Assembly: GCA_964035575.1 (NCBI GenBank)
Contig: OZ037837.1
Span: forward strand, 1,364,001-1,428,000
Source of the DNA: Rhynchopus sp. YZ270_cl-10
Taxonomy: Eukaryota
DNA length: 64,000 bases
Direction of reading: 5' to 3'
The notes under the pieces were generated by a model. The model searched no databases, was not told where the DNA came from, and saw only the letters and a list, made by a program, of their open reading frames with translations. Every line of letters begins with the position of its first letter. The first letter of the stretch is position 1. A program made the translations under genes and the position numbers. Below, piece after piece: positions 12,874 through 48,632 of this stretch.

Positions 12874-13231
12874 TGTGGCTGAAGGGGGGTAATTCGCACT
12901 TTTCCCGCACTTTTTCGCACTTTTACCATGTTGGCTTGCTGACTGTGTGTACCAGGTACACAGGTACACAGGTACACAGGTACACAGGTACACAGGTACA
13001 CAGGTACACAGGTACACAGGTACACAGGTACACAGGTACACAGGTACACAGGTACACAGGTACACAGGTACACAGGTACACAGGTACACAGGTACACAGG
13101 TACACAGGTACACAGGTACACAGGTACACAGGTACACAGGTACACAGGTACACAGTGTTCAACTTTTACAAGGCGGGGAAAACTTTTTTAGGGGCTGATT
13201 CGCACTTTTTCCGCCCCCCCTTTCAGCCACA
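12874..13231. mobile_element. Putative MITE carrying a satellite
   Basis: Imperfect inverted ends TGTGGCTGAAGGGGGG and CCCCCCCTTTCAGCCACA, subterminal TTCGCACTTTT repeats, and a degenerate 8-bp flank (CGCAAAAC/CCAAAAAC). Confidence 0.5.
12953..13154. repeat. (CAGGTACA)n satellite, ~25 units
   Basis: Perfect 8-bp tandem repeat. Confidence 0.97.
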
Positions 13232-14312: not shown

Positions 14313-15983
14313 ATGAAGCGTTCCTCCGTGACTGAGTCCCCCACCACAAAGAAGGCCCGGGTGGACGGCCCTGCACCCTCCCACCTCTCCGAAACACACA
14401 CTGTGTCTGACACGCAGCCCACCGCACCACAGATGCCGAGCTGTGAGAACTGTGGCGTGCCTGCACAGCTGCAGTGCGGGATCTGCACGGAGCTGTTCTT
14501 CTGCGACACACCTGCGTGCTTCGAAGTGTTCCACTCATCCTTGAGGGCACGTGACCGTGAGACACATCGCGCTTCTGTGACTGCGCGCGGGACGTCGTCG
14601 AAGTGTGCACATCACCCAGACCAAGTGTTGTGCGTCGTCTGTGAAGACCCTGCGTGTGGAGACGCGTTGATCTGCATGCGTTGTGCTTACTTCGGACACA
14701 CGGGACACAAGACAGTTGACATCACGGACTACATGAAACGCCAGCGTGACACCCTTTGCTCACACGTGGAAGACCTGACAACACAGCGGACTGCTGCAGA
14801 GGAGAAGTGCCGTGTGCTTGAGGCACTCCCACCCACAGAGGACAGGTACAAAGACCTTCTCCTGCAGACACACGTCGGGCACCTCGTGATGCGTGAGGAT
14901 GTGTCGCGCAGCGAAGTCGCGTGTGAGGAGGAGGTGGCACGGAGCTTCCTCACACAGGCACTCAGTCGTGAAGGGGAGGTGTGTGTGCTGAAGATGTTTG
15001 TTGCGAAGGCAGGACACATGATTGCTGAGTGTGAGGCGGTGTGCCAGCTTGGGGACGACCAGGTGCTGCGTGCGGTCACAGAGTCGCAGGCCGTTGTGCG
15101 GAGCATCAACAGCATGGCAGCGAGTGGAGACCGCCACCGCCTTGTGGGTGCTGCAGACCCACACACAACGTTTTCCCTGAAGCTGCCTGTTTCGAACGTG
15201 CACGACGCCCTTGCCCAGATGTCTGCGATTGTTGTGCCTGTCCTTGTGCAGGGGTTGGATGGAGTGGAACACGAGATTGAGGTGAGTGTGGATGACACAG
15301 GCAGGGACTTGCTTCGGAAGGTGGCGTCTGCAGTGGGGTTGCGTGAAGGCTGCTTCGACATGACTTTCAGAGATGAAGTGATTGCAGAAGGAGAGGACGT
15401 GGTGCGGCTGAGGGGTCACAGGGTTGTTGTAACGCAGACCAACACAGAGAGGAGGAAGCAGGATGCCATTGCAGCACTTCGTGCGTTGGGTGAGACAACA
15501 CTTACATCAGAAAGGTTGGAGCAGGTGACTGATCCGAAGGTGGCTTGCTTGCTCCTGCAGGCACAAGTTGTGACTGCGATTCCAGACAAGTTCTTCTCGG
15601 AAACTAGAGTGACGTGCATTGATCTCAGTCATGCGTCTGCTGTGACTGTGATTGGACACGGATTTCTTCGTGACTGCACATCTTTGACCAACGTTGACCT
15701 TAGTGCATTGCAAGCTGTCACCTCGATTGGGAGCTACTTCCTTTGCGGGTGCACATCATTATTGTCCGTTGATCTGAGTGGATTGAGACGTGTCACCTGG
15801 ATTTGGTCCTCGTTCCTCTCCGGGTGCACATCTCTGTCGACTGTGGATCTGAGTGGATTACAAGCTGCCACCTCGATTGGGAAATGGTTCCTCACAAGTT
15901 GCCCTTCGTTGAAGACCTTGCATGGAAAGGACAAGTGCAGCGATGTTGTACTCAGGAGTCTCCCACCACACCTACACCAGTAA
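14313..15983 (+). CDS. B-box / coiled-coil / UBL / LRR protein (copy 2)
   Basis: 556-aa paralog of 10028-11818 with one fewer LRR. Confidence 0.85.
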   Translation: MKRSSVTESPTTKKARVDGPAPSHLSETHTVSDTQPTAPQMPSCENCGVPAQLQCGICTELFFCDTPACFEVFHSSLRARDRETHRASVTARGTSSKCAHHPDQVLCVVCEDPACGDALICMRCAYFGHTGHKTVDITDYMKRQRDTLCSHVEDLTTQRTAAEEKCRVLEALPPTEDRYKDLLLQTHVGHLVMREDVSRSEVACEEEVARSFLTQALSREGEVCVLKMFVAKAGHMIAECEAVCQLGDDQVLRAVTESQAVVRSINSMAASGDRHRLVGAADPHTTFSLKLPVSNVHDALAQMSAIVVPVLVQGLDGVEHEIEVSVDDTGRDLLRKVASAVGLREGCFDMTFRDEVIAEGEDVVRLRGHRVVVTQTNTERRKQDAIAALRALGETTLTSERLEQVTDPKVACLLLQAQVVTAIPDKFFSETRVTCIDLSHASAVTVIGHGFLRDCTSLTNVDLSALQAVTSIGSYFLCGCTSLLSVDLSGLRRVTWIWSSFLSGCTSLSTVDLSGLQAATSIGKWFLTSCPSLKTLHGKDKCSDVVLRSLPPHLHQ

Positions 15984-16832
15984 TGCTCACGAGAGCGTTC
16001 ATTTTTCAGCAGCTGTTGTTGTGCATCTTCACCCCTCGCACTGTGTGGCCTGCTGCACCACGGCTGCTCTGCACTGTGCTGAGGTGTGCCTCAAGAGGCA
16101 GAGGGTAGTGGTGCAGAGTTCGACGACGATACTGGCGAGAATGGGTGGGAAGGGACAAAAGAAGGGGTGGGTCACAAAAGGGGTTTGTTTCATTTTGGGG
16201 AGGGTTTGGGTGAAAAGGTAAGGGTGGTTGGTACTGGGGATGTGAAGTGTGCACTGAATTGGTTCTCATTTGTGTATTGTCTGGAGTGATGCGGTTCATT
16301 GAAGCGTTCAATTGATGCAAACATAGTAACGAGCTAAGTTTTGTTACGTGTATGCCACATCACGAACGACTTCTATTCTTCTTTTGCTTGCAATGCCAGC
16401 AGGTAATTGAACACCACACCCAACCTCTTTTCTTTGTTCTATTTTAGGGGTCGCGCCGACCTTGTGGCTTTGGGCGAGAGGTAGTAGGGACTGGCGCCTT
16501 CCTCAGCGTATTCGCCGAGTGTTCCCCCTCCTGCTTCGTCTCGCGTGAGGACCTTTGACGTCTTGTTGTTCGAGGCTTCTTCCTTTGCTCTGCTCTGACA
16601 ACCTCTACTGCTCCTGTCGATCCGTTGCTCTGCAAGGAAGTGACGAATCACGTAAATGCTCGCATGTGGTTTGCACGATTCCTGCATGCGAGATTGCATG
16701 TGGGCATGATGCTCAAGTGATTGACGTGTGTGAATCATTTCCGATGTATGCAGCTTACACCCCTCATCAATAAGTCACACCCAACCCCTTCCAGACACCC
16801 CTGCACCCTCCCACCTCTCCGAAACACACAAC

Positions 16833-18551
16833 ATGGTGTCTGACACGCAGCCCACCGCACCACAGATGCCGAGCTGTGAGAACTGTGGCGTGCCTGCACA
16901 GCTGCAGTGCGGGATCTGCAAGGAGTTGTTCTTCTGCGACACACCTGCGTGCTTCGAAGTGTTCCACCCAAGGGCACGTGACCGTGAGACACATCGCGCT
17001 TCTGTGACTCCGTTCGGGACTTCGTCGATGTGTGCACAGCACCCAGGCCAAGTGCTGTCCCTCGTCTGTGAAGACCCTGCGTGTGGAGACGCGTTGATCT
17101 GCATGCGTTGTGCTTACTTCGGACATGCGGGACACAAGAGAGTTGACATCACGGACTACATGAAACGCCAGCGTGACACCCTCTGCTCACACGTGGCAGG
17201 CCTGACAACTCAGCGGACTGCTGCAGAGGAGAAGTGCCGTGTGCTTGAGGCACTCCCACCCACGGAGGACAGGTGCAAAGACCTTCTCCTGCAGACACAC
17301 GTTGGGCACCTCGTGATGCGTGAGGATGTGTCGCGCAGCGAAGTCGTGTGTGAGGAGGAGTTGGCACGGAGCTTCCTCACACAGGCACTCAGTCGTGAAG
17401 GGGAGGTGTGTGCACTGAAGATGTTTGTTGCGAAGGCAGGACACATGATTGCTGAGTGTGAGGCGGTGTGTCAGCTTGGGGACGACCAGGTGCTGCGTGC
17501 GGTGACAGAGTCGCAGGCCGTTGTGCGGAGCATCAACAGCATGGCAGCGAGTGGAGACCGCCACCGCCTTGTGGGTGCTGCAGACCCACACACAACGTTT
17601 TCCCTGAAGCTGCCTGTTTCGAACGTGCACGACGCCCTTGCCCAGATGTCTGCGGTTGTTGTGCCTGTTCTTGTGCAGGGGTTGGATGGAGTGGAACACG
17701 AGATTGAGGTGAGTGTGGATGACACAGGCAGGGACTTGCTTCGGAAGGTGGCGTCTGCAGTGGGGTTGCGTAAAGGCTGCTTCGACATGACTTTCAGAGA
17801 TGGGGTGATTGCAGAAGGAGAGGACGTGGTGCGGCTGAGGGGTCACAGGGTTGTTGTAACGCAGGTCAACACACAGAGGAGGAAGCAGGATGCCATTGCA
17901 GCACTTCGTATGTTGGGTGAGACGACACTTACATCAGAAAGGTTGGAGCAGGTGACTGATCCGAAGGTGGCTTGCTTGCTTCTCCAGGCACAAGTTGTGA
18001 CTGCGATTCCAGACAACTTCTTCTGGAAAACTGCAGTGACGTGCATTGATCTCAGTCATGCGTCTGCTGTGACTGTGATTGGCAGCGATTTTCTTCATTA
18101 CTGCACCGCTTTGACCAAAGTTGATCTGAGTGGATTCCAAGCTGTCACCTCGATTGGGTCCTGGTTCCTCGGTGGGTGTACATCGTTGTCGACAGTGGAT
18201 ATGAGTGGATTACAAGCTGTCACCTCGATTGGGCACTCGTTCCTCTGGGGGTGCACATCTTTGTCGGCAGTTGATTTGAGCGGACTGCAACGTGTTACCA
18301 CGATAGAGGCCTGCTTCCTGTACGGTTGCACATCATTATCTCTAGTCGATATGTGTGGATTACAAGCTGTCACCTCGATTGGGAACCATTTCCTCTGCGG
18401 GTGCACATCGTTGTCGACAGTTGATCTGAGTGGATTGCAAGGTGTGAGCTCGATTGGGGGGTGGTTCTTCGACGAGTGCACTGCTCTGAAGACCTTGCAT
18501 GGAAAGGACAAATGCAGCAGTGTTGTACTCACGAAGCTAGGCATACAATAA
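16833..18551 (+). CDS. B-box / coiled-coil / UBL / LRR protein (copy 3, lacks the N-terminal NLS segment)
   Basis: 572-aa paralog starting at a new ATG (AACATGGTG), with more LRRs than copies 1 and 2. Confidence 0.8.
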   Translation: MVSDTQPTAPQMPSCENCGVPAQLQCGICKELFFCDTPACFEVFHPRARDRETHRASVTPFGTSSMCAQHPGQVLSLVCEDPACGDALICMRCAYFGHAGHKRVDITDYMKRQRDTLCSHVAGLTTQRTAAEEKCRVLEALPPTEDRCKDLLLQTHVGHLVMREDVSRSEVVCEEELARSFLTQALSREGEVCALKMFVAKAGHMIAECEAVCQLGDDQVLRAVTESQAVVRSINSMAASGDRHRLVGAADPHTTFSLKLPVSNVHDALAQMSAVVVPVLVQGLDGVEHEIEVSVDDTGRDLLRKVASAVGLRKGCFDMTFRDGVIAEGEDVVRLRGHRVVVTQVNTQRRKQDAIAALRMLGETTLTSERLEQVTDPKVACLLLQAQVVTAIPDNFFWKTAVTCIDLSHASAVTVIGSDFLHYCTALTKVDLSGFQAVTSIGSWFLGGCTSLSTVDMSGLQAVTSIGHSFLWGCTSLSAVDLSGLQRVTTIEACFLYGCTSLSLVDMCGLQAVTSIGNHFLCGCTSLSTVDLSGLQGVSSIGGWFFDECTALKTLHGKDKCSSVVLTKLGIQ

Positions 18552-20377
18552 GTGGGAAAATGGGTGGGAAGGGACAAAAGAAGGGGTGGGTCACCAAAGG
18601 GGTTTGGCGTTTTGGGGAGGGTTTGGGTGAAAAGGTAAGGGTGGTTGGTACTTGGGATGTGAAGTGTGCACTGAATTGGTTCTCATTTGTGCATTGTATG
18701 GAGTGATCTGGGTCATTGTAGCGTTCAATTGATTCAAACATAGTAAAGGCCTCAGTTTTGTTACGTGTATGCCACATCACGAACGACCTCTATTCTTCTA
18801 TTGCTTTCTATGCTAGCAGGTAATTGAACACCACACCCCACCCTCTTTTCTTTGTTCTATTTTAGGGGTCGCGCCGACCTTGTGGCTTTGGGCGAGAGGT
18901 AGTAGGGACTGGCGCCTGCCTCAGCGTATTCGCCGAGTGTTCCCCCTCCTGCTTCGTCTCGCGTGAGGACCTTTGACGTCTTGTTGTTCGAGGCTTCTTC
19001 CTTTGCTCTGCTCTGACAACCTCTACTGTTCCCTGTCGCTCCGTTGCTCTCCAAGGAAGTGACGAATCATGTAAATGCTCGCATGTGGTCTGCACGATTC
19101 CTGCATGCGAGATTGCATGTGGGCATGATGCTCAAGTGATTGACGTGTGTGAATGATTTCCGATGTATGCAGCTCACACCCCTCATCAATAAGTCACACC
19201 CAACCCCTTCCAGACACCCCTGCACCCTCCCACCTCTTCGAAACACACAACATGGTGTCTGACACGCAGCCCACCGCACCACAGATACCGAGCTGTGAGA
19301 ACTGTGACGAGCCCGCACAGCTGCAGTGCGATCTGCACGGAGTTGTTCTTCTGCGACACGCCTGCGTGCTTCGAAGTGTTCCACTCATCCTTGAGGCCAC
19401 GTGACCGTGAGACACATCACGCTTCTGTGACTCCGTACGGGACGTCGTCGATGTGTGCACAGCACCCAGGCCAAGAGCTGTGCGTCGTCTGTGAAGACCC
19501 TGCGTGCGTGTGGAGACGCGTTGATCTGCTTGCGTTGTGCTTACTTCGGACACACGGGACACAAGACAGTTGACATCACGGACTACATGAAACGCCATCG
19601 TGACACCCTCTGCTCACACGTGGCAGACCTGACAGCACAGCGGACTGCTGCAGAGGAGAAGTGCCGTGTGCTTGAGGCACTCCCACCCACAGAGGACAAG
19701 TACAAAGACCTTCTCCTGCAGACACGCGTCGGGCACCTCGTGATGCGTGAGGATGTGTCACGCAGCGAAGTCGTGTGTGAGGAGGAGGTGGCACGGAGCT
19801 TCCTCACACAGGCACTCAGTCGTGAAGGGGAGGTGTGTGCGCTGAAGACGTTTGTTGCGAAGGCAGGACACATGATTGCTGAGTGTGAGGCGGTGTGCCA
19901 GCTTGGGGACGACCAGGTGCTGCGTGCGGTGACAGAGTCGCAGGCCGTTGTGCGGAGCATCAACAGCATGGCAGCGAGTGGAGACCGCCACCGCCTTGTG
20001 GGTGCTGCAGACCCACACACAACGTTTTTCCTGAAGCTGCCTGTTTCGAACGTGCACGACGCCCTTGCCCAGATGTCAGCGCTTTTTGTGCCTGTCCTTG
20101 TGCAGGGGTTGGATGGAGTGGAACACGAGATTGAGGTGAGTGTGGATGACACGGGCAGGGACTTGCGTCGGAAGGTGGCGTCTGCAGTGGGGTTGCGTGA
20201 AGGCTGCTTCGACATGACTTTCAGAGATGAAGTGATTGCAGAAGGAGAGGACGTGGTGCAGCTGAGGGGTCACAGGGTTGTTGTGACGCAAACCAGCACA
20301 GAGGGAAGGAAGCAGGATGCCATTGCAGCACTTCATGCGTTGGGTGAGACGACACTTACAGAAGAAAGGTTGAAGCA

Positions 20378-20444
20378 GGGGTTTTTACCGAGCACCTCCA
20401 CGAGGTGACCCCGGGCAACGCAGTGGACTGCGGCAAAGACTCGG
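20378..20444 (+). ncRNA. HDV-like self-cleaving ribozyme at the LINE 5' end
   Basis: P1 GGGGTT(20378-83)/GACCCC(20407-12); P2 CCGAG(20388-92)/CTCGG(20440-44); P3 ACC/GGT with loop TCCACGA; P1.1 GG(20413-14) then GCAA; P4 CGCAG/CTGCG; J4/2 GCAAA with candidate catalytic C20434. Confidence 0.85.
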
Positions 20445-21874
20445 AAGAAGAAGAAGAAGAAAACGACGAAGAAAAAAGACAGATTTTTGTGCGAACGCTT
20501 ACTGGAAAGACAGTGACAGTGGACGTCAGCGACGCGGACTCGGTGGCTGACCTGAAGGCGGCAGTGCGAGCGAAGACAGGTGGACGCAGAGACGTGCAAC
20601 GCCTTACCATCAACGGAAGGGACATGAGCGACAAGGAGTCGCTCCGGATGTGCAGGACGCACTGCAACGTGTGGGAGCTGGGTAGGCTAAGGGGAGGAAG
20701 CAGCGGCGACACCCCGGAGGCTATGGACGACACCCCCCCATTCACACTCGAGATACCCGACAGCAAGGCAACGAACTCCGCCGCCCGGGTATACGACCTC
20801 AGACCTGTCCCACCCCAGGCAACCAGAGCGGACTGCGTCACCGCATTGAAGGCGATGCAGTGGGAGGGGGCGCGGGTGGTGACGCTGCTCAACAAGGGCA
20901 GAACGGGGGAGAAGACCCTCGTGGTGCGTGCGGAGTCCCAGCCCCCACACCGCAGCATCAAGTGGCAAAACGTTGTGGTGTCAATCTTCCCCGCAGAAGC
21001 AAAGGATACTAGTACCACCACCACCACCAACCACAACCACGCCCCCAAGAGAGTCCCCGACCCCACGGTGAGGAACCGCAAGGATAAGTATACCATTGCA
21101 GAGTTCAGGCAGGAGTACGGGGCAGCCAGAGGCAAACTTCTCTTCGAGGAAGGCACACAGCTGGAGCTGGCATGGCTGCAGCGCAAGGAGCAAAGATCCC
21201 ATCACCAACAGACCTTCACCACACCTCAGAACCTCGACCCGCTGCTCTCGGTGGTGCAGCAGAACGCGGCCGCGCTGACACAGCTATCACGCACAGGCCA
21301 GGAGACCACGGCTGCCCTTCTGCACATGGGCAGGGGACTCGAGGCCATGAGCATCGGGGTGGAAGGGATGGGCAAGGGCATCGAAGCCCTGCTGGAACGA
21401 CAGGCGTCGCAGCACGCCGAAACGACGGCCGTGCTACACGGCATGGATGGGCGTCTGCAGAGCATCGAGGCTCGGCAGATCTCGACGGAGGAGTGCCTGC
21501 AGCACATCCTGAGGGTGGTATCCGCCAACACCAGCACCAACACCAACGCCAACGCCACCACCGCCTCACAGCCCAGCTCCCCACGACCCCCATCACCACT
21601 CCCTGACGCAGAGTCGCTGAAGACTCCGCCGCAGGCACCCACGCCGTCTCCCGCGGAGACAAACAAGGGGGCAAAGACCCCACTTGCAAAGGGGAAGGCG
21701 GGAAAGGGGAAAGGGGGAACCACCGCCCCGCCATCCGCGGCCGCCTCCCTCGACGACATCTTCTCCGCGTCGCCGCTGGCGGGGAAGAAGGGAAAGGGAA
21801 AGGGAAAGGGAAAAGACGACCCAGGGAAAAGCCAAGGACAAGCGAACCTGCTCGACTTCAACCTCGATCTCTGA
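20405..21874 (+). CDS. LINE ORF1: acidic leader, ubiquitin-like domain ending LRGG, possible RRM-like region, coiled coil, Pro/GKG-rich tail (true start unknown; frame open from the element 5' end)
   Basis: QIFVRTLTGKTVTVDV..QRL..RLRGG at 20480-20698. Heptad-rich segment at ~21240-21510. No ATG upstream of the ubiquitin moiety. Confidence 0.85.
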   Translation: MTPGNAVDCGKDSEEEEEENDEEKRQIFVRTLTGKTVTVDVSDADSVADLKAAVRAKTGGRRDVQRLTINGRDMSDKESLRMCRTHCNVWELGRLRGGSSGDTPEAMDDTPPFTLEIPDSKATNSAARVYDLRPVPPQATRADCVTALKAMQWEGARVVTLLNKGRTGEKTLVVRAESQPPHRSIKWQNVVVSIFPAEAKDTSTTTTTNHNHAPKRVPDPTVRNRKDKYTIAEFRQEYGAARGKLLFEEGTQLELAWLQRKEQRSHHQQTFTTPQNLDPLLSVVQQNAAALTQLSRTGQETTAALLHMGRGLEAMSIGVEGMGKGIEALLERQASQHAETTAVLHGMDGRLQSIEARQISTEECLQHILRVVSANTSTNTNANATTASQPSSPRPPSPLPDAESLKTPPQAPTPSPAETNKGAKTPLAKGKAGKGKGGTTAPPSAAASLDDIFSASPLAGKKGKGKGKGKDDPGKSQGQANLLDFNLDL

Positions 21875-24800
21875 ACTCTCCTCCTTCCCCTATCCCCTGT
21901 AAATCAACTCCCGACCCCCTCTTAGAATTAGAACAAACTAGAAACTGGCTGGACGCAAAGGCAGACCCCACTAGATTAGATACGTACTTAGAATCGCACA
22001 TAGAACCGGGGATAGGTAGGAGCGCCTACCCCAAAAACAACGACAATCCCGTGAACCCACTGAGGGCCATCACCGACCACAAGGAGTGGTTGGACGCAAC
22101 AGCCCGCAGTATCAACTCTACAAGGATAGCAGTAGCGCCAGACGGGGACTGCCTATTCACTGCCATAGCTGAGCAGAGCGAGGGGTGGACAACGAACTCA
22201 CTGCGACAACGGGTGGTGGACGTACTGCAAAACGACGACAGTGACCTCTATGCTGACAGCTACTCTCCTGAGGCAAACGAACCTCCCACCTACACGCAAC
22301 ACCTAGCCAAAATGAGAATGCAAGGAACGTACGGTGGAGAACGTGAGCTACAGACTGCGGCAAGCATACTCGACAGGGCCATCTGGGTACTGGATGCCAG
22401 AGCGAAACGGTTTAGCCACGTCGGCGGACCACCTACATCGAACCCAGTTGTGCTCACGTACAGGCCCGAGCACTTCGACCGCCTCAAAGCAACCGAGGGG
22501 CTGCTGTCGCTGATTGCAACGACGCAGGCAGAAGGCAACCGCTGTGTCATGCTGGAGAACCTGGACACGAATATCGCAGTGTCTCGCTCACGGAAACGTA
22601 CCAAGACGGAGAGAAAGCGACGCCGCGCTGCCCGGGCCACTCCAAACCTGTCCATACGTACTGCCAACATCACCTCAATGAATGCTCACCAGGAGGAGGT
22701 GTGGAGTTGGGACAACGACATAGTCGCACTGCAGGAGACCCGGCTCACACAGAAGAAACAGGCCCAAGCTTCCCGAACGCTGTATGAACAAGGCTGGACA
22801 GGTCTCTGGGGGTGCCCAGTAAAGTTACTTCCAAATGCAATACAACAGAGCTACGGAGAGCACAAGGGGGTGGGCCTAATGGTGAAACGAGGCATACCAG
22901 CAAGTGTGGTCAGGAGAGATACTGAACGAGCAAAGAGACTCTGGGACTCAAAGCGTTACCTGCACGCAAAGGTGGCACATGGGGCAGGGAACCATTTTCT
23001 ACACCTATTCGTGATATACGCGAAAGTCGGCAACTCCCCGCAAGCAAAGCAAGAGCGCGAGAGCTTCCTATCGGATGTATTTGCAGAAGCAGAGATAGGG
23101 GACGTACCAGCGATTATCCTCGGGGATTGCAACAGCCACCCAGAACCCAGCTCAAGCGAAGCAATATCCCTAGCCATCAGCTCAGAACGATGGACGGACT
23201 GTGCCGAACGAGCCGCGGGCTGGGCCAACCAAGAGCCAGAGCACACCCACATCGGTAAGAGCACAAAGTCTGAAGCCAAAAGTGTGTGCTCACGAATTGA
23301 CATCATACTGGCCAACCAAATCGCGGTGCTTGCGCTGGCAGGGTGCAAAACGGGGACGGCCGGAATACCTTCACACATCCCCCTGGACGCGACATTTAAA
23401 AATATGACGTACCGGCAGCGTGTGCTCAAGCAGGAAAGGCCCCCTATGCTACAACAGGATGAACTGAGCAGGAAGAAAACGAAGGCAGACCTTGAAAAGG
23501 AGGCTGAAGAGATCTGCGATGGTTCCAAAGCACAATGGCACGCAAGCACATTGGTAGAGGACAAGTGGAAAGCATGGAATGAGGATGCGACCAACTTCTG
23601 GGCACGGCAGGGAGACGACAACTCAGCAGCATGTTTCCGCAAAGGCCGACCACCCAAACTGCGACGCACCTGGCTGTGCAGCAGACAGTCTCGCGAAGGC
23701 GACGCAGGAGAGACCCTCAAGATGACGCGCATCCGGAAGACGATCCGCAGACTAACTGAGGTCGGCAACACTCTACGCACCAAAGGAGCCCTCACACCCA
23801 GCGCACGCAAGGCGTGGGACAAAGCGAAGGCAGGGCTGGTGAGCATTCTCGACGCTACCCCAGAGGAGGAGCCGCAGGCCAGCACGACACTGGAGCTGAT
23901 ACAGCGCCTGCACCAGAGACTCGAAACTGCCAGAAAGAACCTGGAGAGGGACAGGGCCACGCAAAGGTACCGCATGATACGCACGCAATGGCACACCACA
24001 CCAGGGCTCATCTACAAGCGCCTCAACGGAGCCAAAATGCGGTGCAACACGATGAAGCGCGGGACGGAAGAGACCGCGAATGTGGAGGACATGGACACGT
24101 GGTTGCGTGAGGCATGGCTTCCCATACTTCAAAAGCACAACACCCTGAGTGACACACCCACGTGGGAAGCGTTCGAGGAAAGGTTTGGCACACACATACC
24201 TCAACGGCCGATGCACGTAGAACCCCTAACCGGAAGGATGCTGAAAGCCGTGGCCGAGAGCATGCCGAAGGGGAAGGCCCCCAGCACAGACGGATGGCAC
24301 CCAGAAGAACTTGCGCTTCTCCCAACGGGGATCTTCGACAGGCTGGCATCAATCCTCAACCAAGTAGAAGAGACGGGCGTATGGCCAGAAGCTCTCCTCC
24401 ACGCGACCGTGAGCATGATCGCCAAGGTGGAGGACCCACAACCACTCGACCACCGACCAATTTCCGTGATGTCGGCGGTATATCGGCTATGGGCAAAGAC
24501 AAGGTTGACGAGCCTAATGGTGTGGCAAGAGACATGGGCACCGGAATCCATGCACGGCTTCAGGACTGGGCACGGAACACGTGACGCTTTTTACCTCACC
24601 GCACTCCTGGTCGAAAAAGCAATGGTGTCGGGGAACACGCTGCGAGGAGTATTTCTGGACATTAAGAAATGCTTCGACACCATACCGTGGGACATAACCT
24701 TCAGTCTTGTGGAGAAAATGGGGATCGACATGAAGATCACGCGGCCCCTCAAGAGCATGTACAGGGACCTGAAGAGGCGGTTCAAACTGTACGGTACGGT

Positions 24801-27312
24801 CGGTGAGGAGTTCAAAGCGAACAATGGCATTCTGCAGGGATGTGCGCTGAGCATTATCCTGCTGAACGCCCTCCTAGCAGTGTGGGAGGCGGCGGTTCGG
24901 ACGGAAACCAGATGTCGGACAAGCCTGTACGCGGACGACACCACCATGACCTCGAACAACACCGCACAATTGAGGAAAGGCCTCACAGTGTCCCACGACT
25001 TCGCCACCAAGACCGACCTCACGTACGGAAGTAGTTTCTCCTTCTCGACAGCCAAGACCGAAAAGCTGGAGCTCATGCTCGGAGACACCCAGCTGAGACA
25101 GGAGAAGAAGGAACTGGACAATCTCGGCGCAGTGATCAGACTGGCCGTAGCCAAGAAAAAGGAAGCAGCGACAAAGCTGGACAAGCGAGTGCGCAAAGCT
25201 GAGACATGTGCGCGACGTATCCCTCACCTCAACGTCCCCTTTGAAGGCAGAGCCGAACTGGTGGCGACAAAAATAATGCCCATGGCACTCTACGGCTGCG
25301 AGACGTACGAGCCGCTGTCCACCACCGCTGGAAGGCTCACCAAAGCAGTGACGGCGGCGATTTGGAGGGGCCTACCTAGCAGATGCAGTGAAATAGTGAG
25401 GGGAGTGCTGAACCCGCTACACCGGACAGACCCAACATCTTACCTCAAGTACCAACGCCTGCTCGCGCTCTACACCATGGGGAAGAACCAGGAGATTAGA
25501 ACCCTAATAGACGAGATCCGTATCCTGAAGCGGACGTCGAGAGTAAAATACTGTGGACCGGTAGACATCCTCCTCCGCACCACCCAATCCATGAACTGGC
25601 GCTGGGAGAACAACACCCTATTGCCCCCGCACACAACACAGATGAACCTCGACGAACCCGAGGGTGACCTTCTTCGACACCAACTCCGAGACGGTATCAG
25701 GGACGATTTCTGCCGTAGACTCGAGACAAGGAGGGAGGACATGCAAGGGGTTAAAGATGGCATCGATTATCGCACGATCAACGCCGTGTGGAACAGCTAC
25801 AAGAACACAGATCCACTGCGTGCAGGGTACATGAGGAACATTCTTGCAGGAGCGGAGCTCACACAGGACAGGCGCAAAAGAATGAAGATGAGCACCAGTG
25901 ACACGTGCGAGCACTGCGGCACAGGTGTGGAGGACTTTGAACACATGTGGGAACAATGCAGCCACACCGCACACATACGCGAACAGCACAAATACGCAGG
26001 AGTGTCCGATCCAGCAGTAAGAGAAAGCTGGCCGAAATGCCTGCGCCTCAACGCCATTCTCCCCGCCGGCTTCCAGATGATTCCGGAAGTGCCGAACAGA
26101 GAAGCCCTAGAGCTGCTGCTTCTCATGTACTCAGACATCGCCCTAGAGAGGGAGGACAAGAGAAAACGCGGTACCACTACAACGAAGACGAGCCAAATGG
26201 ACAATTTTCCCTGGACATGGGAACCAGAAGGCCCATACGAGACCTACATAGGAGTACTTCCTGACGAGGTGCCAGACGCGTGGCCGTACAAAGCGGAAGG
26301 ATACCTCGCACTCAAGGAGTGGCTGGAAAGCCTAAAGTGGCCGACGGTGTCCAATGGGAAATCACAGCACGTCTCGCACCTGGAGCTGGCGCTGGACTTC
26401 GAAGCGCACACAGGAGCAAAGCTCACCACAGAGGAACCCAATTCCCGAGAGAGCTCCATGATCACCGACAAAATCACCTGGTTCAGCAACTGGATGGCTA
26501 AGGCAAAGATAGTGGCAGCAAACGCGTACCTCTTCTCGGGCACCATCTACCCCAAGAGCAAAGTGTTCGCCCCATTAGACCTAGGCATCAAGTGGGGAAC
26601 CCTAGCGATCACGAGACAACCCATCCTCACCGAACCAGCTGAGGTGCTCAAGACGATCCGGTCCCTGCCAACCCTCTGCAAAGGGAACAAATCCTGGACG
26701 AACACAGAGCTCCCACCCCTAGAAGAGGACTGCAAACAGGAGAGAGCAGACAGAATTGCGAAGCACATCCGCTTGGCTGCTGAGCAGAAGCAGCAGAAGC
26801 AGGCTCGACGAAAACCAAAGAAACCCACCGGACACACTCGCATCTTCTTCGGCGGATACTGCAACGTGAGGCAGCCGGGGGCGAGGGTGAAGAAAAACAC
26901 TTGCCAGGGATCGGGCGCAGGTGCACGCCTCGAGATAGATGGCGAGGTGCGGTGGACAGCCAGCAGTCGCCTGGCGGACACAACCCTGAACGTCGCGGAG
27001 TATGAAGGACTGCTGATGTGCCTCGAATACCTGAAGAGCGACACAGACACCACACCACTGAACATCTACGGATCCAGTAGAACCGTGGTTGACCAGGTGA
27101 ACGAGCACTGCAGACCATACGCGGCAGTCGCCCACCTCCAGAAAGAGGCGCGGGGTGAGCTTGACAAGCTGAGAGCGACCCGAAGCATCACGTTGGTGCA
27201 CATCGACAGCAGTAACAACGTGAACGCCACAAAGCTCGCCTGCACGGCCGTTGAGAAGCTTAGTGTGGGCGAGACAACGAAAGAGGACAAGCTAGGACAG
27301 CACCCTCTGTAG
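21607..27312 (+). CDS. LINE ORF2: OTU cysteine protease, APE endonuclease, reverse transcriptase, zf-RVT-like finger, degenerate RNase H (stop-to-stop frame 21607-27312)
   Basis: OTU: VAPDGDCLF..YGGEREL..EHFD (~22120-22485). APE: TANI, ALQET, LGDCN, RIDIIL, SHIPL (~22650-23400). RT: KAPSTDG, HRPIS, FLDIKKCFD, GILQGCALS, LYADD (~24210-25140). Finger: CEHC..H..C (~25906-25960). RNase H fold: NVAEYEGL (~26839-27250). Confidence 0.93.
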   Translation, partial: RRVAEDSAAGTHAVSRGDKQGGKDPTCKGEGGKGERGNHRPAIRGRLPRRHLLRVAAGGEEGKGKGKGKRRPREKPRTSEPARLQPRSLNSPPSPIPCKSTPDPLLELEQTRNWLDAKADPTRLDTYLESHIEPGIGRSAYPKNNDNPVNPLRAITDHKEWLDATARSINSTRIAVAPDGDCLFTAIAEQSEGWTTNSLRQRVVDVLQNDDSDLYADSYSPEANEPPTYTQHLAKMRMQGTYGGERELQTAASILDRAIWVLDARAKRFSHVGGPPTSNPVVLTYRPEHFDRLKATEGLLSLIATTQAEGNRCVMLENLDTNIAVSRSRKRTKTERKRRRAARATPNLSIRTANITSMNAHQEEVWSWDNDIVALQETRLTQKKQAQASRTLYEQGWTGLWGCPVKLLPNAIQQSYGEHKGVGLMVKRGIPASVVRRDTERAKRLWDSKRYLHAKVAHGAGNHFLHLFVIYAKVGNSPQAKQERESFLSDVFAEAEIGDVPAIILGDCNSHPEPSSSEAISLAISSERWTDCAERAAGWANQEPEHTHIGKSTKSEAKSVCSRIDIILANQIAVLALAGCKTGTAGIPSHIPLDATFKNMTYRQRVLKQERPPMLQQDELSRKKTKADLEKEAEEICDGSKAQWHASTLVEDKWKAWNEDATNFWARQGDDNSAACFRKGRPPKLRRTWLCSRQSREGDAGETLKMTRIRKTIRRLTEVGNTLRTKGALTPSARKAWDKAKAGLVSILDATPEEEPQASTTLELIQRLHQRLETARKNLERDRATQRYRMIRTQWHTTPGLIYKRLNGAKMRCNTMKRGTEETANVEDMDTWLREAWLPILQKHNTLSDTPTWEAFEERFGTHIPQRPMHVEPLTGRMLKAVAESMPKGKAPSTDGWHPEELALLPTGIFDRLASILNQVEETGVWPEALLHATVSMIAKVEDPQPLDHRPISVMSAVYRLWAKTRLTSLMVWQETWAPESMHGFRTGHGTRDAFYLTALLVEKAMVSGNTLRGVFLDIKKCFDTIPWDITFSLVEKMGIDMKITRPLKSMYRDLKRRFKLYGTVGEEFKANNGILQGCALSIILLNALLAVWEAAVRTETRCRTSLYADDTTMTSNNTAQLRKGLTVSHDFATKTDLTYGSSFSFSTAKTEKLELMLGDTQLRQEKKELDNLGAVIRLAVAKKKEAATKLDKRVRKAETCARRIPHLNVPFEGRAELVATKIMPMALYGCETYEPLSTTAGRLTKAVTAAIWRGLPSRCSEIVRGVLNPLHRTDPTSYLKYQRLLALYTMGKNQEIRTLIDEIRILKRTSRVKYCGPVDILLRTTQSMNWRWENNTLLPPHTTQMNLDEPEGDLLRHQLRDGIRDDFCRRLETRREDMQGVKDGIDYRTINAVWNSYKNTDPLRAGYMRNILAGAELTQDRRKRMKMSTSDTCEHCGTGVEDFEHMWEQCSHTAHIREQHKYAGVSDPAVRESWPKCLRLNAILPAGFQMIPEVPNREALELLLLMYSDIALEREDKRKRGTTTTKTSQMDNFPWTWEPEGPYETYIGVLPDEVPDAWPYKAEGYLALKEWLESLKWPTVSNGKSQHVSHLELALDFEAHTGAKLTTEEPNSRESSMITDKITWFSNWMAKAKIVAANAYLFSGTIYPKSKVFAPLDLGIKWGTLAITRQPILTEPAEVLKTIRSLPTLCKGNKSWTNTELPPLEEDCKQERADRIAKHIRLAAEQKQQKQARRKPKKPTGHTRIFFGGYCNVRQPGARVKKNTCQGSGAGARLEIDGEVRWTASSRLADTTLNVAEYEGLLMCLEYLKSDTDTTPLNIYGSSRTVVDQVNEHCRPYAAVAHLQKEARGELDKLRATRSITLVHIDSSNNVNATKLACTAVEKLSVGETTKEDKLGQHPL
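21790..21814 (+). promoter_or_regulatory. Candidate -1 ribosomal frameshift site: four tandem slippery heptamers
   Basis: G_GGA_AAG x3 and G_GGA_AAA in the ORF1 phase, inside the 268-nt ORF1/ORF2 overlap. ORF2 is the -1 frame. Confidence 0.6.
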
Positions 27313-28794
27313 ATATTTTACCTTGTTCTTCTTGTTTTTCATGCATTTCAATCTTCCTCAACGACATTCTTGTTTTTCATTGTTTACAGTTGACACAGCG
27401 ACGCATAAGTCCATTTGGCACTGTTGTTGAACCCCAAGTTCAAACCGGACGGCTATCCCAGCGTAGATGGCAGCAGACGTGTACGCCACGCCTGAAACCG
27501 GTAATTTTAATATTCATTGCTTTTCTTTACAAGTTGACACAAGATTCTAGATTTTAAGTTGGTTCAACGTCGCATGAGACCAGTTGGCGCAGTCGTTGAA
27601 CCCTCAATTTTTCATTTTTTTTTTTTTTTTCTGGTTTTGGCCCGTGAAACCCTGTGTTACATCAACGCTGGGTTCGCGAGCCTGAAGCCAGGGGTGGCTG
27701 CATTCCTTTTCGGACCGGGGTGCTCCATCCTATTTTTTAAAAACGTTTATCCAGAAGAAAGGTTGGAGCAGGTGACTGATCCGAAGGTGGCTTGCTTGCT
27801 CCTGCAGGCACAAGTTGTGACTGCGATTCCAGACAGCTTCTTCTCGAGAACTGCAGTGACGTGCATTGATCTCAGTCATGCGTCTGCTGTGACTGCGATT
27901 GGGAGATCAGTTCTTAGTAACTGCACAGCTTTGACCAATGTTGATCTGAGTGGATTGCAAGCTGTTACCTCGATTGGTGAAAATTTCTTATGCCAGTGCA
28001 CATCGTTGTCAAAAATTGACTTGAGTGGATTACAAGCTGTCACCTCGATTGGGAAATGCTTCTTGTACGAGTGCACATCATTGTCGACGGTTGATTTGAG
28101 TGGATTGCAAGGTGTGGACTCGATTGGGGGGTGGTTCTTAGGCCAGTGCACTGCTCTGGAGACCTTCCATGGAAAGGAGAGCTGCAGCGATATTGTACTC
28201 ATGTGTCTGGATCCGTACGGCGGGAGAATGCGTGGGAAGGGACAAAAGAAGGGAGGAAAGGCAGGAATGAAGGGAAATAATAAAGGACAAACGATTGATC
28301 GCAAAGTCAAAGGCAGGTGGTAAAGGTGATGGTGGCAAAAGGTGGGAAAAATGGGGATAGGGGGTCTGAGGGAGGGAAGAAGGGGTTGAAGAGAGGGCGG
28401 GGTGGTGGGGCGGTGCAGACGGCCCCCTACACGGCTGCTCCACTTAGAGTAGTCCTCCTGCTGAGGTAAAGGGAACAGAAAAATAGAAGAAAAAAGAGAA
28501 AAACGAAAAGAAGAAAGAAAATAAAAAGGGAGAAAAAGAAGAACTGAGAGACCATATATTGTACCGTTTTTTCACCCACCCAACCGGACCCAACACAGCC
28601 CATCTGGACCCACTTGGGGTCAATTCCACCCAATTATACCCAATTATACCCAAGTACAGCCCAATTTTTCCCAATTACGCCCAATTACAGCCCACCGACA
28701 CCCGGAAAAAACGGTACCATAATAATATGCCATCCTTCCCTTTTGCTGGTTTTTCTTTTTGCGAGGGTGGATCACGTTTTTCAAGTTTAATAAT

Positions 28795-29368: not shown

Positions 29369-32300
29369 ATGGGTCCGAAGAAGGCGAATGCGGACGGTGT
29401 GTACGATGACGAATATGACAAGCTAGAGCTGCGGGAGCAGATCATGTTACGACCCGACACGTACGTAGGATCGCTCGAGAAGACGACGGAACGTCTCTGG
29501 GTGTACAACGAAGATGCGGGCGAGATGGAGCAGCGCAACATCGAGTTCGCACCAGGGCTGTTCAAGATCTTCGACGAGATCCTCGTGAACGCTGCAGACA
29601 ACAGACAGCGCGATGCCGCGATGTCACAGATCAAAGTTGTCATCAACAAAGAGAAAGGCTTTATCCAGGTATGCAATTTAGTGAATATGACATCATGCAA
29701 AAGCATGATGTCATAAAAGGCCGACTTTTGAGAAGGGGAGGGGGAAACATGCAGCCGTGTTTTTTTGTTTTGAAGCAGTAACCTAGACCACGAACGTTTT
29801 ATTCTCTTACGGTACGGCCACTCATGGATACGATGAGCAAGAGACCCATCTTCTTCGAAAACCTTTATTTCCCTATCACGCGGGGAAGCACCTAGGTTTG
29901 CGTCCACCCGCTTAACGGGGGTATTTTTAAAACTGTACATCACCCTCCACCTCCCACAGGTGTACAACAACGGCGAGGGCATTCCCGTCCACATCCACAA
30001 GAAGCACAACCTGTACATCCCGGACATGATCTTCGGCCACCTGCTCACCTCGCGTAACTACCAGGCCGACGTCAAGCGCATGACCGGCGGGCGCAACGGC
30101 TACGGTGCTAAGCTTGCGAACATCTTCTCCACGAAGTTCACTGTTGAGACGAGCCACGCTGCGACTGGCAAATGCTTCAAAAAGACGTGGACGAAGAACA
30201 TGACCAAGGAAGGTGAGATCAGCTTGACCGACGCGAAGCCGAAGGACTTCACTTCGGTCACTTTCTATCCGGATTTTGCGCGCTTTGGGATGGACAGCTT
30301 TGAGGACGACACGGTAGCGCTGTTCGAAAAACGTGTCATCGACATTGCAGGGATCACAGACAAAAGCTTGAAGGTCTACCTCAACGGCAGCCCCGCACCG
30401 GTGCAGGCCTTCGAAGCCTACGTGAATCTGTACCCCGGCATGGGCGAGGATGCAAACAAGGCGTACCACCACGCAACCGACAGATGGCAAATCTCGATCC
30501 GTCCATCCAACATCGACTTCCAGCAGGTCTCCTTCGTGAACTCCATCTGTACGACCCGTGGAGGGAAGCATGTTGACCATCTTGTCCAGGAAACGGTCAA
30601 AAAAATTACGGATCAACTCAAAAAGAAGAACAAAAAAGTGGGGGATGTGCAGATGCGCAACGTCAAGCCGTTTCTCTGGGTCTTTGTCAACGCGCAGATT
30701 GAGAACCCTTCGTTCGACAGTCAGACGAAGGAGACGCTGAACACGAGCAAGGCGAAGTTTGGCTCGCTCCCTGAGATCCCTCCGAAGATGGTGGACGCGC
30801 TGTGCAAGATTGTCAACGAACGCATTCTGGATCGCATCAACAACCGCATCGAAAAAATCATGAAAGACAAAGTCGCTGGCGCAGGCAAAGCCCGCAACGT
30901 CAACGTCCCCAAGCTCGACGACGCAAACGACGCCGGCGGCAAAAAGGGACATCTCTGTACCCTCATCCTTACTGAGGGCGACTCCGCAAAATCGATGGTA
31001 ACGTCCGGTCTGGGAAAGCTTGGACGTGACAGATTTGGATGCTTTCCCCTACGCGGAAAACCACTCAACGTCCGCGAAGCAACCAAATCGCAGATCGCTA
31101 ACTGCAAAGAGGTGCAAAACATCATGAAGATCGTGGGACTCAAACCGGGTGTCAAATACACCGGGAAAAACATGAACCAGCTCCGCTACGGCTCGATCAT
31201 GATTATGACCGATCAGGACCACGACGGCTCCCACATCAAAGGTCTCCTTGTCAACCTCTTCCACTTCCTCTGGCCAGAACTTCTCTCCGAACCCGGATTT
31301 CTGGTCCAATTTATTACCCCTATTGTGAAGGCCTTCCCTGCTGGAGTAAAGGATGCGGACGACAAAAGCATTTCGTTCTTTACGATTCCAGACTTTATCG
31401 AATTCAAGGAAAAGCAGGCAGCCTTGAAGAAGAAGTGGACCTACAAATACTACAAGGGGCTGGGGACGTCCTCCACGAAGGAAGCCAAGGAGTACTTCGA
31501 GAATATGGAGGATCACCGCATCGATTTTGTGTACGAAGGCGCGGAGGACGATAAGAACATTAAGCTTGCCTTCTCAAAATCCGAGATCGAAGGAAGAAAA
31601 CGGTGGATCACGCAATACGATACTGCCAACTGGGTCAACTACAATGTGAAGTCGCTTAGCTACTCCGAATTTATCAACAAAGAGCTGATTCTCTTCTCCA
31701 TTGCAGACTGCGACCGTTCCATCCCCTCTGTCGTCGACGGCCTCAAACCTGGACAGCGCAAAATTCTTTTCTGCTGCTTCAAAAGAAACCTTACCAAAGA
31801 AATTAAGGTTGCGCAGTTTTCTGGTTACATCTCCGAGCACGCAGCATACCATCACGGTGAGGTCTCCCTGCAGGGAACGATCGTTGGGATGGCGCAGAAC
31901 TTCACGGGGGGGAACAACCTCCCATATCTTGCACCGTGCGGTCAGTTTGGTTCGAGGGCGACCGGAGGGAAGGATGCTTCGTCTGCGAGGTACATCTTCA
32001 CGAAGCTCGACCCCGTCACACGATGCATTTTCCCCAAGGTGGATGACCAGCTTCTCACCTACAAAGACGACGATGGCCTTTCCGTTGAACCAGAGTACTA
32101 CCTTCCGATCATCCCCACCGTGCTTCTCAACGGCACCTCAGGGATTGGAACCGGCTTTTCCACCTCAATCCCGAATCACTCCCCTCTTCACCTCATCGAC
32201 TGTGCTCGCGCTTTGATGAGCGATTCAGAACTCCCCGAGATCTCCCCTTGGTACAGAGGGTTTAAGGGGCCGATCAAATCGAAGGGTGAAGGGAAGTTTA

Positions 32301-34274
32301 CGACCGAGGGGGTCGTGGTGGCGGTGGATTCGACGGTGGTGCGGATCACGGAGCTTCCGGTGCGGATGTGGACAGACAGCTTCAAGGATGAGTTGTTGAA
32401 GAAGCAGGAGCGTGGAACCATCATCGAGTTTAGAAACCACACCACCGGGGATGATGTCGATGTTGACGTGGCGATCAGCCCTGCCGCGTTGACACAGCTT
32501 GGAAACACTCCTGGCGCGCTTCTCGAATTCTTCGGGTTGACCAACTCGCTTGCGTACACGAACCTCATCTGTTTCGACAAAACCGGGATTCTGCATAAGT
32601 ACCATTCCCCAAAAGACATTGTCAAGGAGTGGTACACTTTGCGTCTCAACGGCTATGTTGCGAGAAAGAAGTATTTAATTGCGGAGCTCAAACTGACCTG
32701 CAAAAAGCTTGAAAACAAAGTGCGCTTCATCAAGGAGGTGAACGAAGGGACCATGAGCATTCGGAACAGAAAGCGTGGCGAGGTGTTGGCGGCGTTGAAG
32801 AAGGGGGGGTACGATACCTTCGCTGCGGAGACGAAGCGGCAGGTGGCGAAGACTGCGATCTTGGAAACCGAGCAGCAGGCCAACGACGATGCCATGGAGG
32901 ATGAAGCCGAGAACACAGACACAAAGTCCGCAGTCTTTTCGACCCTCCCATCTGACAAATACAGCGATGCGAAGACCAAGGCACGCCAGAATGACGACGC
33001 AGAAGGCTATGAATACCTTCTCAACATGCACATCTGGTCCCTCACCTACGAGCGTGCGAGGCAGCTCGAGGAACAGCTCAAACGCGCCAAAGAAGACCTC
33101 ATCCTCCTCGAGAAGACAACCGAGAAGGAAATGTGGTCTGCAGACCTTGACGTTCTCAAAACCGCTGTCGAGCGCGCGAACCGCATCTGGGAAGAAGACA
33201 TGAAGGATGTGGCCAAGAAGGGCGGAGGTGGAGGAGGAGGAGCAGGAGGTAAACGGAAGGGCAAAGCTGTGAAGAAGATGCAAACCCGCCTCACGGATGC
33301 GGACGTCAAGGCGGCGAAGGAGACGGATGTTTCTAGAAAGGCGCTGCAGCAGGATCTGGACAAGGCTTTCAAAAAATCCGTCACGACCACGCGAGGCACT
33401 GAAAGCGGGAAACGCAAACGCAAAACGGATGAGGAAAATGAAGATGAAGATGATGACAACGATGACGACGACGACGACGAAGGCCAGACCCGCAAGCGCA
33501 TTAAAACAAACTCCGGATCGGCAGCAACAGCGCCAAAAAAGAAGGCGGCAAAGAAGGCCCCTGCCAAACGCTCCCGCAAGGCAAAGCGCGACAGCGACTC
33601 CCTGTGCGCCACGACGGAGGACACATCTGATGACAGTGACGACGATGATGACAGCGACGACGACGATGACGACTCCTCCGGCAGTGGTGACGACAGCTCT
33701 GACAGCGACGACGCAATCCGCAAGAAGCCCGCTAAGAAGGTCGCAAAGAAGGCACCCACAAAGAAGGGCGCCACCAAGGAGGAGGCGATGTCTGTGGATG
33801 ACAGCGACAGCGACGACGACCTTGACCTTCGCAAGAAGCCCGCCAAGAAGGCTCCCGTCAAGAAGGCGCCTGTCAAAAAGGCACCTGCCAAGAAGGCGGC
33901 CGCAATGCAGATCGATGACGACTCTGACGACGATGAGTATGTTATAAAAAGATTAGTGGAGCACACTCTAGGGTGGCTACACTAATACAACCAAGTTTTC
34001 AAAAAAAAGCGTTATCCCTTGAAAATAGTGAGCAAATTAGAGTTTTTTTTTCCCCATAAAATCCCCATAAATCAGTGTAGGGATCTGGAACTCCAAAAGA
34101 AAGAATTTTTGTTTAATACATTGCAATTCTGTGAACTGAAAGTATATGAATCTAACTTAATACATCTAACCATTTTCCCCTTACAGCATCCTCAACTTTG
34201 ATGTCGGCAAGAACCTTGGTGTGAGTGTCGGCAAGAAGAGGAAGACCATGGTGCTCGACGACGACTCGGACTAG
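29369..34274 (+). CDS. TOP2: DNA topoisomerase II; exons 29369-29668, 29960-33936 and 34187-34274
   Basis: Motifs RPDTYVGS, FDEILVNAADN, GGRNGYGAK, LTEGDSAK, PLRGK, DQDHDGSHIKGL, YYKGLGTS, YHHGE and catalytic SARYIF. GT-AG introns 29669-29959 and 33937-34186 (CTAAC branch points in intron 2) preserve the frame. The protein ends ..KKRKTMVLDDDSD*. Confidence 0.97.
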
Positions 34275-48323: not shown

Positions 48324-48632
48324 GTGATGTACCGCGTAACACACCCACCCAGCCACGGAGATCAGTTTGTTCTGTTCTCGCGGTTTGTTTTTTTCTGTGG
48401 AAGCGAACAGCAACCTTACTTTCCTCTCCCCGTTTACAGTCTTTTGATAAACAAGCAAAGAGTAAGAAGTCTCAAGCATTTTTTTTTGTTCTGTTTACGT
48501 TTTCACATCTTTTGCATTTCAACAATGTGAGCACAGTATCCCCTTCCCATTCTTTGAATGTCATTGACCTGAACACCCGAGTTGCGAAGTCATACAAATA
48601 CATCACAAACACAACAGACCCTGAAGAAAACA

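Follow-up and report, generated by a model that had tools for sequence, protein, structure and literature searches.

Does a retrotransposon that encodes both a ubiquitin-like domain and an OTU-type protease use the second to trim the first? The question is raised by a long interspersed nuclear element (LINE) of Rhynchopus sp. YZ270_cl-10 (contig OZ037837.1), located within a stretch of 64,000 nucleotides (positions 1,364,001 to 1,428,000 of the forward strand) that we call the window and in whose numbering all coordinates are given. The element occupies positions 20378–27751 of the plus strand; its first open reading frame (ORF1) carries a ubiquitin-like (UBL) domain ending in RLRGG, and its second (ORF2) an OTU domain ahead of the endonuclease and the reverse transcriptase. 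It is probable that the UBL leader is clipped off, whichever enzyme cuts. That the cutter is the element's own OTU, acting after RLRGG as a processing protease that replaces 2A, is what the sequence comparisons suggest to us at a little under even chance. The element consists of the following parts.

20359–20377, plus strand: left target-site duplication (TSD), differing from the empty sites by a single G>A change
20378–20446, plus strand: hepatitis delta virus (HDV)-like ribozyme (Rfam RF02682) at the exact 5′ end, its match beginning immediately after the TSD
20378–20479, plus strand: in-frame leader without ATG, the ORF1 frame being open through the ribozyme and an acidic run
20480–20698, plus strand: UBL domain, 73 amino acids (aa), ending in RLRGG; predicted cut at 20698/20699 (GG/S, the slash marking the cut)
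20699–21874, plus strand: ORF1 body, 391 aa, with a conserved domain at the N-terminus, then a helical-looking middle part and a tail that is basic and of low complexity
21607–27312, plus strand: ORF2 frame, 1901 codons stop to stop, in the −1 frame with respect to ORF1, whose last 268 nucleotides (nt) it overlaps
21808–21814, plus strand: slippery-type heptamer G GGA AAA in the ORF1 frame, with four G GGA AAG nearby; candidate only
22060–22490, plus strand: OTU cysteine protease domain with D-G-D-C (Cys codon at 22150) and H-F-D (His codon at 22471)
22660–23385, plus strand: APE endonuclease, passing the Pfam cut-off
24448–25119, plus strand: reverse transcriptase with YADD at 24928, passing the Pfam cut-off
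25780–25974, plus strand: zinc-binding domain zf-RVT, below the Pfam cut-off
26887–27240, plus strand: RNase H-like domain, scoring as RVT_3, predicted inactive
27313–27751, plus strand: 3′ untranslated region (UTR) without poly(A), with two strong terminal hairpins at 27631–27730
27752–27770, plus strand: right TSD, retaining, like the empty sites, the G altered in the left TSD

The TSD is 19 bp long with one mismatch (up to 21 bp via G microhomology). The window also contains three paralogues of the host gene that are not interrupted; these represent empty sites, each holding the target sequence once. Hence, the ends of the element are exact and the UBL lies inside it. The original prediction, made from the sequence of the window alone, had placed two unbroken frames and a TSD at these same coordinates, and the empty sites agree with it. 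With APE and reverse transcriptase in a single ORF, no long terminal repeats, and a TSD with an empty site, this is an intact APE-type non-LTR element.

The ORF1 frame is open at 20348–21874. Its UBL domain scores 37.6 bits against the Pfam ubiquitin family (cut-off 25.4; E = 1.8e-9), and the AlphaFold model of the domain (pLDDT 75.6) matches ubiquitin in Foldseek with a TM score of about 0.8, the alignment behind the model having included ubiquitin-like rows that bias the fold in this direction. Identity to ubiquitin is 35–41%; the domain lacks Met1, has T in place of I44 and differs in its last strand. By its sequence, then, the moiety is a diverged ubiquitin-like protein and not ubiquitin proper, which has 76 aa, Met1 and the I44 patch; the β-grasp fold (predicted), the C-terminal di-Gly and the extension that follows are those of a type I UBL. 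The earlier description of a 73-aa ubiquitin-like moiety at this position, ending in RLRGG and continuing in frame from SSGDTPE into a body of about 390 aa, is thus retained, with the qualification that the moiety is not ubiquitin itself. All seven ORF1 copies open the UBL with KRQIF. The body is likely an RNA-binding ORF1p, a function assigned by position; no homologue of it was found outside the family, the Atlas yielding no usable match. A likeness, seen by eye, to ORF1 of the related locus L023 was dropped at a BLASTP E-value of 4.9. Folding UBL and ORF1 together from the single sequence gave no usable model (pLDDT 42).

The OTU domain scores 32.4 bits against Pfam PF02338 (cut-off 23.3), its Cys-His-Asp triad is intact, and the closest solved structures are OTUD3 and OTU1. 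The order OTU, APE, reverse transcriptase, zinc finger and RNase H proposed for ORF2 stands, as do the OTU catalytic residues; the zinc-binding domain falls below its cut-off, and the RNase H-like domain has three of four catalytic acids replaced. The three substituted motifs are identical in all six sister copies checked, whereas four relatives keep these residues.

Loss of LRGG or of the OTU catalytic residues in sister copies had been named beforehand as the outcome fatal to the idea. Instead, RLRGG is retained in 7/7 ORF1 copies from three subfamilies, including one with a synonymous change in the last Gly codon; D-G-D-C is retained in all seven copies that span it, and H-F-D in 9/9, two of these nine being 5′-truncated and hence devoid of the D-G-D-C region. 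The ORF2 cluster has 19 members (15 of them listed), and a second ORF1 cluster has three. A third variant, P0206, likewise keeps RLRGG. Subfamily B is 99% identical to the window element in ORF2 and 52% in ORF1. Between subfamilies A and B, 71 of the 73 UBL residues are identical, as are 100 of the next 143 and 77 of the remaining 226. Judging from the seven UBL DNA differences among the matches listed, the UBL codons are under purifying selection: five are synonymous and two non-synonymous (P = 0.012), and both amino-acid changes agree exactly with the B protein.

The same contrast is seen between copies P0008, P0010 and P0015 on the one hand and P0001, P0020 and P0021 on the other, which are near-identical in ribozyme, UBL and ORF2 and very different in ORF1 bodies and spacers, a pattern of ORF1 swapping or rapid diversification. 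Two further copies on different contigs, P0007 and P0012, have in common a 5′ truncation inside the OTU and a frameshifted C-terminal end, and are possibly a non-autonomous subfamily or a duplicated locus.

More distant relatives suggest what the OTU may cut. A HMMER search with OTU and APE returned 561 matches, and the best 150, which include proteins of Diplonema papillatum, D. japonicum and Eupelagonema oceanica and so make a diplonemid the probable host, were examined. Eighteen of these have an OTU (13 together with APE), and 55 have a 2A-like motif before APE, counted within 70 aa of it. In that slot the 2A-like motif is found in 0/13 OTU+APE proteins vs. 55/91 others (Fisher test, 2e-5). 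On a quick APE tree with 62 labelled rows, limited to proteins that have a complete APE and one of the two labels, the OTU/2A label changes eight times, at least four of the changes being forced by strong branches, and hence the two modules appear to have been swapped repeatedly.

The relatives' OTUs are frequently preceded by a di-glycine. Counting 20–80 residues before the OTU Cys, a GG ends 30–61 residues upstream in 10 of 15 OTU frames with upstream sequence, in seven of them at 30–37 (expected 3.1–3.7; P from 1e-4 to 5e-4), and the stricter pattern hydrophobic-x-GG, with the hydrophobic residue at P4, is present in 8/15 frames (about one expected). One protein with GG at distance 10, inside the OTU (P0136), was scored as negative. 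Gly or Ala follows GG at nine of the ten sites; in the window element, the UBL tail is followed by Ser. Two sites, PLRGG/G in P0186 and MSGG/A in L023, were found after the pattern was first noticed, and GG-positive frames span several lineages on the APE tree. The family pattern says that the relatives' OTUs would recognise peptide sites resembling a ubiquitin tail. The window family has no GG site before its OTU, and RLRGG is the sole hydrophobic-x-GG upstream of it; hence, the UBL tail is its only conserved candidate cut site.

Several of these relatives deserve a record of their own. The P0025 cluster, with 17 members and a protein of 1991 aa, is another family of the order OTU-APE-RT-RNase H, with intact RNase H acids and MVGG/G before the OTU; it probably resides in the same genome as the window family, since its contigs match those of some copies in length. 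Positions 4226–14364 of L023 contain two OTU LINEs head to tail; in the second, ORF1 is broken and contains a 2A-like motif, and MSGG lies 36 aa upstream of the OTU Cys. The APE-less proteins P0136, P0142/P0223 and P0158 have a similar OTU (E from 1e-18 to 1e-20), and one of them resembles a DNA transposase, which suggests exchange of the domain between transposon classes in these genomes.

A clip-off leader would be useful because three features combine in this element, namely a 5′ ribozyme, missing ATGs and a target preference, all of which went unnoticed in the original prediction. The RF02682 match scores 37.8 bits (E = 2.9e-4), short of the gathering score of 44, and covers the full model length with the first 69 bases. 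Numbered from 20378, the pairings, read by eye from the numbered sequence and the Rfam alignment, are P1 1–6/30–35 (6 bp), P2 11–15/63–67 (5 bp), P3 17–19/27–29 and P4 42–46/51–55, with an L3 of 7 nt and the predicted catalytic C at 20434, in J4/2. The element is thus predicted to free its own RNA by a 5′ HDV-like ribozyme. No ribozyme match was obtained in seven related loci. There is no ATG upstream of the UBL, the first in ORF1 (20624) falling within the domain; GTG at 20405 is a candidate start, and the leader frame is likewise open in subfamilies A, B and C. ORF2 also lacks an ATG ahead of the OTU Cys, its first (22312) being downstream of the catalytic codon.

In public sequencing runs, contig depth, which is not the same as copy number, is unevenly distributed around 20378–20461. 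In run X3, depth over the ribozyme is about 10 times that over the UBL, and in run X4 a contig of depth 1345 departs from the element at 20461, the contigs continuing into the UBL having depths of 324–333. These depths hint at a short element, commoner than the full one and similar to RIME or NARTc, that has the ribozyme in common with it.

The third feature is the insertion site. The host gene is interrupted as follows.

19431–20377, plus strand: host gene, 5′ part, with a B-box-like region and a host UBL domain without GG
27752–28323, plus strand: host gene, 3′ part, with BspA-type leucine-rich repeats (LRRs)

The 5′ junction is readable in nine copies (P0020 has no flank). Six junctions, in the window, P0013, P0016, P0021, P0012 and one X3 contig, lie at one position of the host UBL-domain family with flanks that are all different. 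Two (P0001, P0007) are tandem insertions located after the 3′ end of another copy via a target-like spacer, and one (P0206) is in the same host family about 48 codons upstream. Protein-based junctions were ascertained through open frames, and those of P0012, P0007 and P0001 may not be independent, since one spacer peptide is common to all three. The element inserts preferentially at one site of the host UBL-LRR gene family. Insertion is in frame with the host gene in P0013, P0016 and P0021; that it is always so had to be given up, as the window copy and that of one X3 contig are out of frame. Capture of the element's UBL from the target gene was likewise rejected: the host target UBLs have no GG and are identical to it at 11–17 of 73 positions, against 26–30 for ubiquitin-like units.

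Host genes of the B-box/UBL/BspA-LRR type form a tandem family in the window (10028–18551, 36424–37236 and 41957–43066). Relative to its paralogues, the interrupted copy has a frame break in its 5′ part, near 19430–19570.

In L1Tc, an HDV ribozyme frees the RNA and a 2A sequence just after the leader trims the protein (PMC5814959, PMC3708506; statements on this and all other cited papers refer to the accessible parts of their texts). We propose a comparable route for the window element. Host transcription would enter the element, and the ribozyme would cleave at 20378. Translation of ORF1 would begin at a non-AUG codon of the open leader or, in uncut in-frame copies, at the host-gene AUG; since an ORF1 without its own AUG would start at differing points, its precursors would have variable N-termini. 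Cleavage at GG/S would strip everything upstream, which is the job of 2A in L1Tc and ingi, and ORF1p would always begin at the same Ser (20699). The cutter would be the element's OTU, as the relatives' OTUs are paired with a hydrophobic-x-GG site just upstream, in the slot otherwise taken by 2A. ORF2 would be made by non-AUG reinitiation or by a −1 frameshift, and the OTU may additionally remove host ubiquitin. Viral OTU-like proteases are known to process their own polyproteins (PMC3968130).

A number of observations weigh against cleavage by the element's own OTU. Host USP and UCH enzymes process ubiquitin fusions efficiently, host deubiquitinases (DUBs) are abundant, and LINE ORF2p is usually far scarcer than ORF1p. 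Five of 15 OTU frames have no GG, namely the window family, a frame starting 39 aa before the Cys, and three APE-less proteins; neither the GG nor the 2A statistics correct for relatedness among the proteins, and the choice of motif was post hoc. Host enzymes could also be indicated by the LRGG-like motifs that some non-OTU relatives have before APE (7 in 8,642 aa there vs. 2 in 43,794 aa downstream). One L023 element contains both modules, 2A in ORF1 and OTU in ORF2, so that their exclusion is limited to the pre-APE slot. No UBL was found in the 150 relatives, 34 further cluster members and 87 loci, an ORF1 in a separate frame being invisible in proteins; as none of the 150 relatives or 87 loci has one, the UBL is known from the window family only. 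The DNA just downstream of the UBL differs far more between subfamilies (34 changes in 221 nt), and low UBL divergence may come partly from recombination. Finally, most human OTUs and the turnip yellow mosaic virus protease PRO do not cut linear polyubiquitin (PMC3968130). The earlier proposal that the element matures its own protein by clipping the UBL accordingly emerges with mixed fortunes: the retention of RLRGG and OTU, purifying selection, the relatives' GG sites and the OTU/2A exclusion speak for it, whereas most OTUs spare linear ubiquitin and host DUBs would suffice.

The best-surviving alternative, which we consider possible but rather unlikely, is that host USP/UCH deubiquitinases clip the UBL and the OTU separately strips ubiquitin from the ribonucleoprotein, stalled ribosomes or target chromatin. 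It accords with the intact RLRGG tail and (predicted) β-grasp fold, with the inability of most OTUs to cut linear fusions (PMC3968130), and with the UBL not being seen in the examined proteins of OTU-bearing relatives. A role in DNA repair signalling has been proposed for OTU and Ulp1 on DNA transposases (PMC2836005), and DUBs on ORF2p have been linked, as a suggestion, to ribosome stalling (PMC13405545). However, the UBL has some 36–41% identity to ubiquitin and departs from it at I44 and in the last strand, so that host enzymes should recognise it less well, and this alternative leaves unexplained the GG at a fixed distance before related OTUs and the exclusion of 2A from their slot.

Somewhat less probable again is a −1 frameshift producing a leader-UBL-ORF1-OTU-APE-RT polyprotein that the OTU would trim in cis; it is compatible with clipping by the element's OTU and differs in how ORF2 is synthesized. 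The ORF2 frame runs without a stop through 148 codons ahead of the OTU region (chance of no stop about 0.11 in the overlap and about 0.09 in the spacer) and appears, by eye in P0022, to be open over the unrelated B-type ORF1 tail as well. The overlap contains G GGA AAA and G GGA AAG heptamers; yet the latter merely encodes a Lys-Gly-Lys repeat, and no stimulatory structure was found downstream of the former (z = −0.29). Copy P0016 is a single 2449-aa frame, but its two frames join in a purine run where an assembly indel is possible, and B copies show a called start (M) in the overlap. Non-AUG reinitiation is, moreover, known for LINEs.

The weakest alternative, that the UBL is retained as a folded domain or decoy of ORF1p (for stability, interaction or mimicry of host UBLs) or bypassed by a start at Met 20723, is improbable: conservation of this Met (EAMDD) in subfamilies A, B and C, the lack of an ATG ahead of the UBL, its odd last strand and low-confidence tail in the model, and the UBL domains of the target genes agree with it, but purifying selection on the UBL codons, the invariant RLRGG in 7/7 copies and the dissimilarity of the element's UBL to the GG-less host domains (11–17/73 identical) do not.

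Clipping by the element's own OTU may also be cast more widely, in a form that we regard as doubtful: an OTU autoprotease with a hydrophobic-x-GG site would repeatedly replace 2A in a widespread protist LINE family, and here its substrate would be a private UBL, diverged from host ubiquitin, that fits the OTU of the same element; the two would form an orthogonal UBL/DUB pair on a ribozyme-headed, AUG-less, site-targeting retrotransposon.

The element was found in contigs of several public runs, at least half of its words being present in 6/12 runs listed; there were no RNA data sets among the matches listed. The first metagenome scan for the element returned nothing, a viral-contig scan gave weak reverse transcriptase matches and nothing else, and a word-indexed search with ORF2 residues 1–700 had the window's own protein as its sole match. 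At the 3′ end of the element there is no poly(A) tail. None of 200 shuffles folds as well as the terminal hairpins at 27631–27730 (z = −5.78). The 3′ UTR also has a pair of 52-nt repeats (27383–27434 and 27552–27603; 75% alike) with no Rfam match and weak folding (z = 0.54 and −1.86).

Elsewhere in the window, repeated ORFs of about 370 aa are located at 457–1575, 38357–39472, 47205–55390 and 60580–61722; six of them were scanned and gave weak WD40/β-propeller Pfam matches, none above the cut-off. An intronless type II topoisomerase gene lies at 30026–33985.

In pestiviruses, ubiquitin insertions provide a processing signal in cytopathic bovine viral diarrhoea virus; unlike the present case, these are RNA viruses, and their ubiquitin is host-like and cut by host enzymes. 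The closest parallels among retrotransposons are L1Tc and ingi of trypanosomatids, with which the window element shares a 5′ HDV-like ribozyme at +1, the APE-RT-RNase H order and TSDs (PMC5814959, PMC12278014, PMC3708506, and PMC4035085, which covers the HDV-like ribozymes), as well as an N-terminal processing signal right after the leader, 2A in their case (PMC3708506). Insertion at a hot spot, often in tandem, in a protein-coding multigene family is shared with ingi and RIME, which use RHS (PMC7563717). Unlike L1Tc/ingi, the window element has two ORFs instead of one, a UBL-RLRGG leader with an OTU, an RNase H predicted to be inactive, and a UBL-LRR family as target; no 2A motif was found in its ORF1 or before APE. 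Thus, of the traits that define Ingi/L1Tc (PMC3708506), the +1 ribozyme is present, the RNase H domain is present with three of four acids replaced, and both the single ORF with 2A and poly(A) are missing; because the last two defining features fail, we do not place the element in this group.

Proteases of the DUB type at the N-terminus of LINE ORF2p have been described in Symbiodinium necroappetens (OTU) and in Dualen/RandI (Josephin); the former is noted in passing among 2A-bearing proteins, and no UBL, GG site or processing role is mentioned in the accessible text (PMC13405545). NeSL/Utopia (Ulp1), Ginger1 and Helitron (OTU) are also mobile elements with ubiquitin/SUMO-type proteases of untested function, but they are LINEs with an RLE-type endonuclease or DNA transposons, and no encoded substrate is described in the parts available (PMC4640811, PMC2836005). 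Arterivirus PLP2 and tymovirus PRO, again from RNA viruses, use the OTU fold as both polyprotein protease and DUB (PMC3968130). The accessible parts of papers on diplonemid (PMC10161547) and trypanosomatid (PMC12278014) repeats describe no OTU proteases or ubiquitin, and that of PMC5718144 holds nothing relevant. Across the accessible full-text literature, Repbase/Dfam and most subscription papers aside, there was no report of a LINE ubiquitin fusion, a GG site of a LINE OTU or an OTU/2A exchange. An OTU at the N-terminus of LINE ORF2p is therefore already known; provisionally, the UBL, its pairing with the OTU and the mechanism are apparently unreported.

Ubiquitin/SUMO-type proteases (Ulp1, Josephin, OTU) are common on mobile elements, their function being untested in the cited papers as far as their accessible parts go, and this family allows a direct test: it encodes a candidate substrate, its relatives have a predicted cut site, and the OTU and 2A are naturally interchanged. 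The target preference gives a second example, besides the RHS case, of an APE-type LINE that uses a protein-coding family as insertion hot spot. If cleavage by the OTU is true, it would give the DUB domains of mobile elements a job, would show how uniform proteins arise from LINE RNAs that lack an AUG and are released by a ribozyme, and might yield a compact, orthogonal pair of tag and protease.

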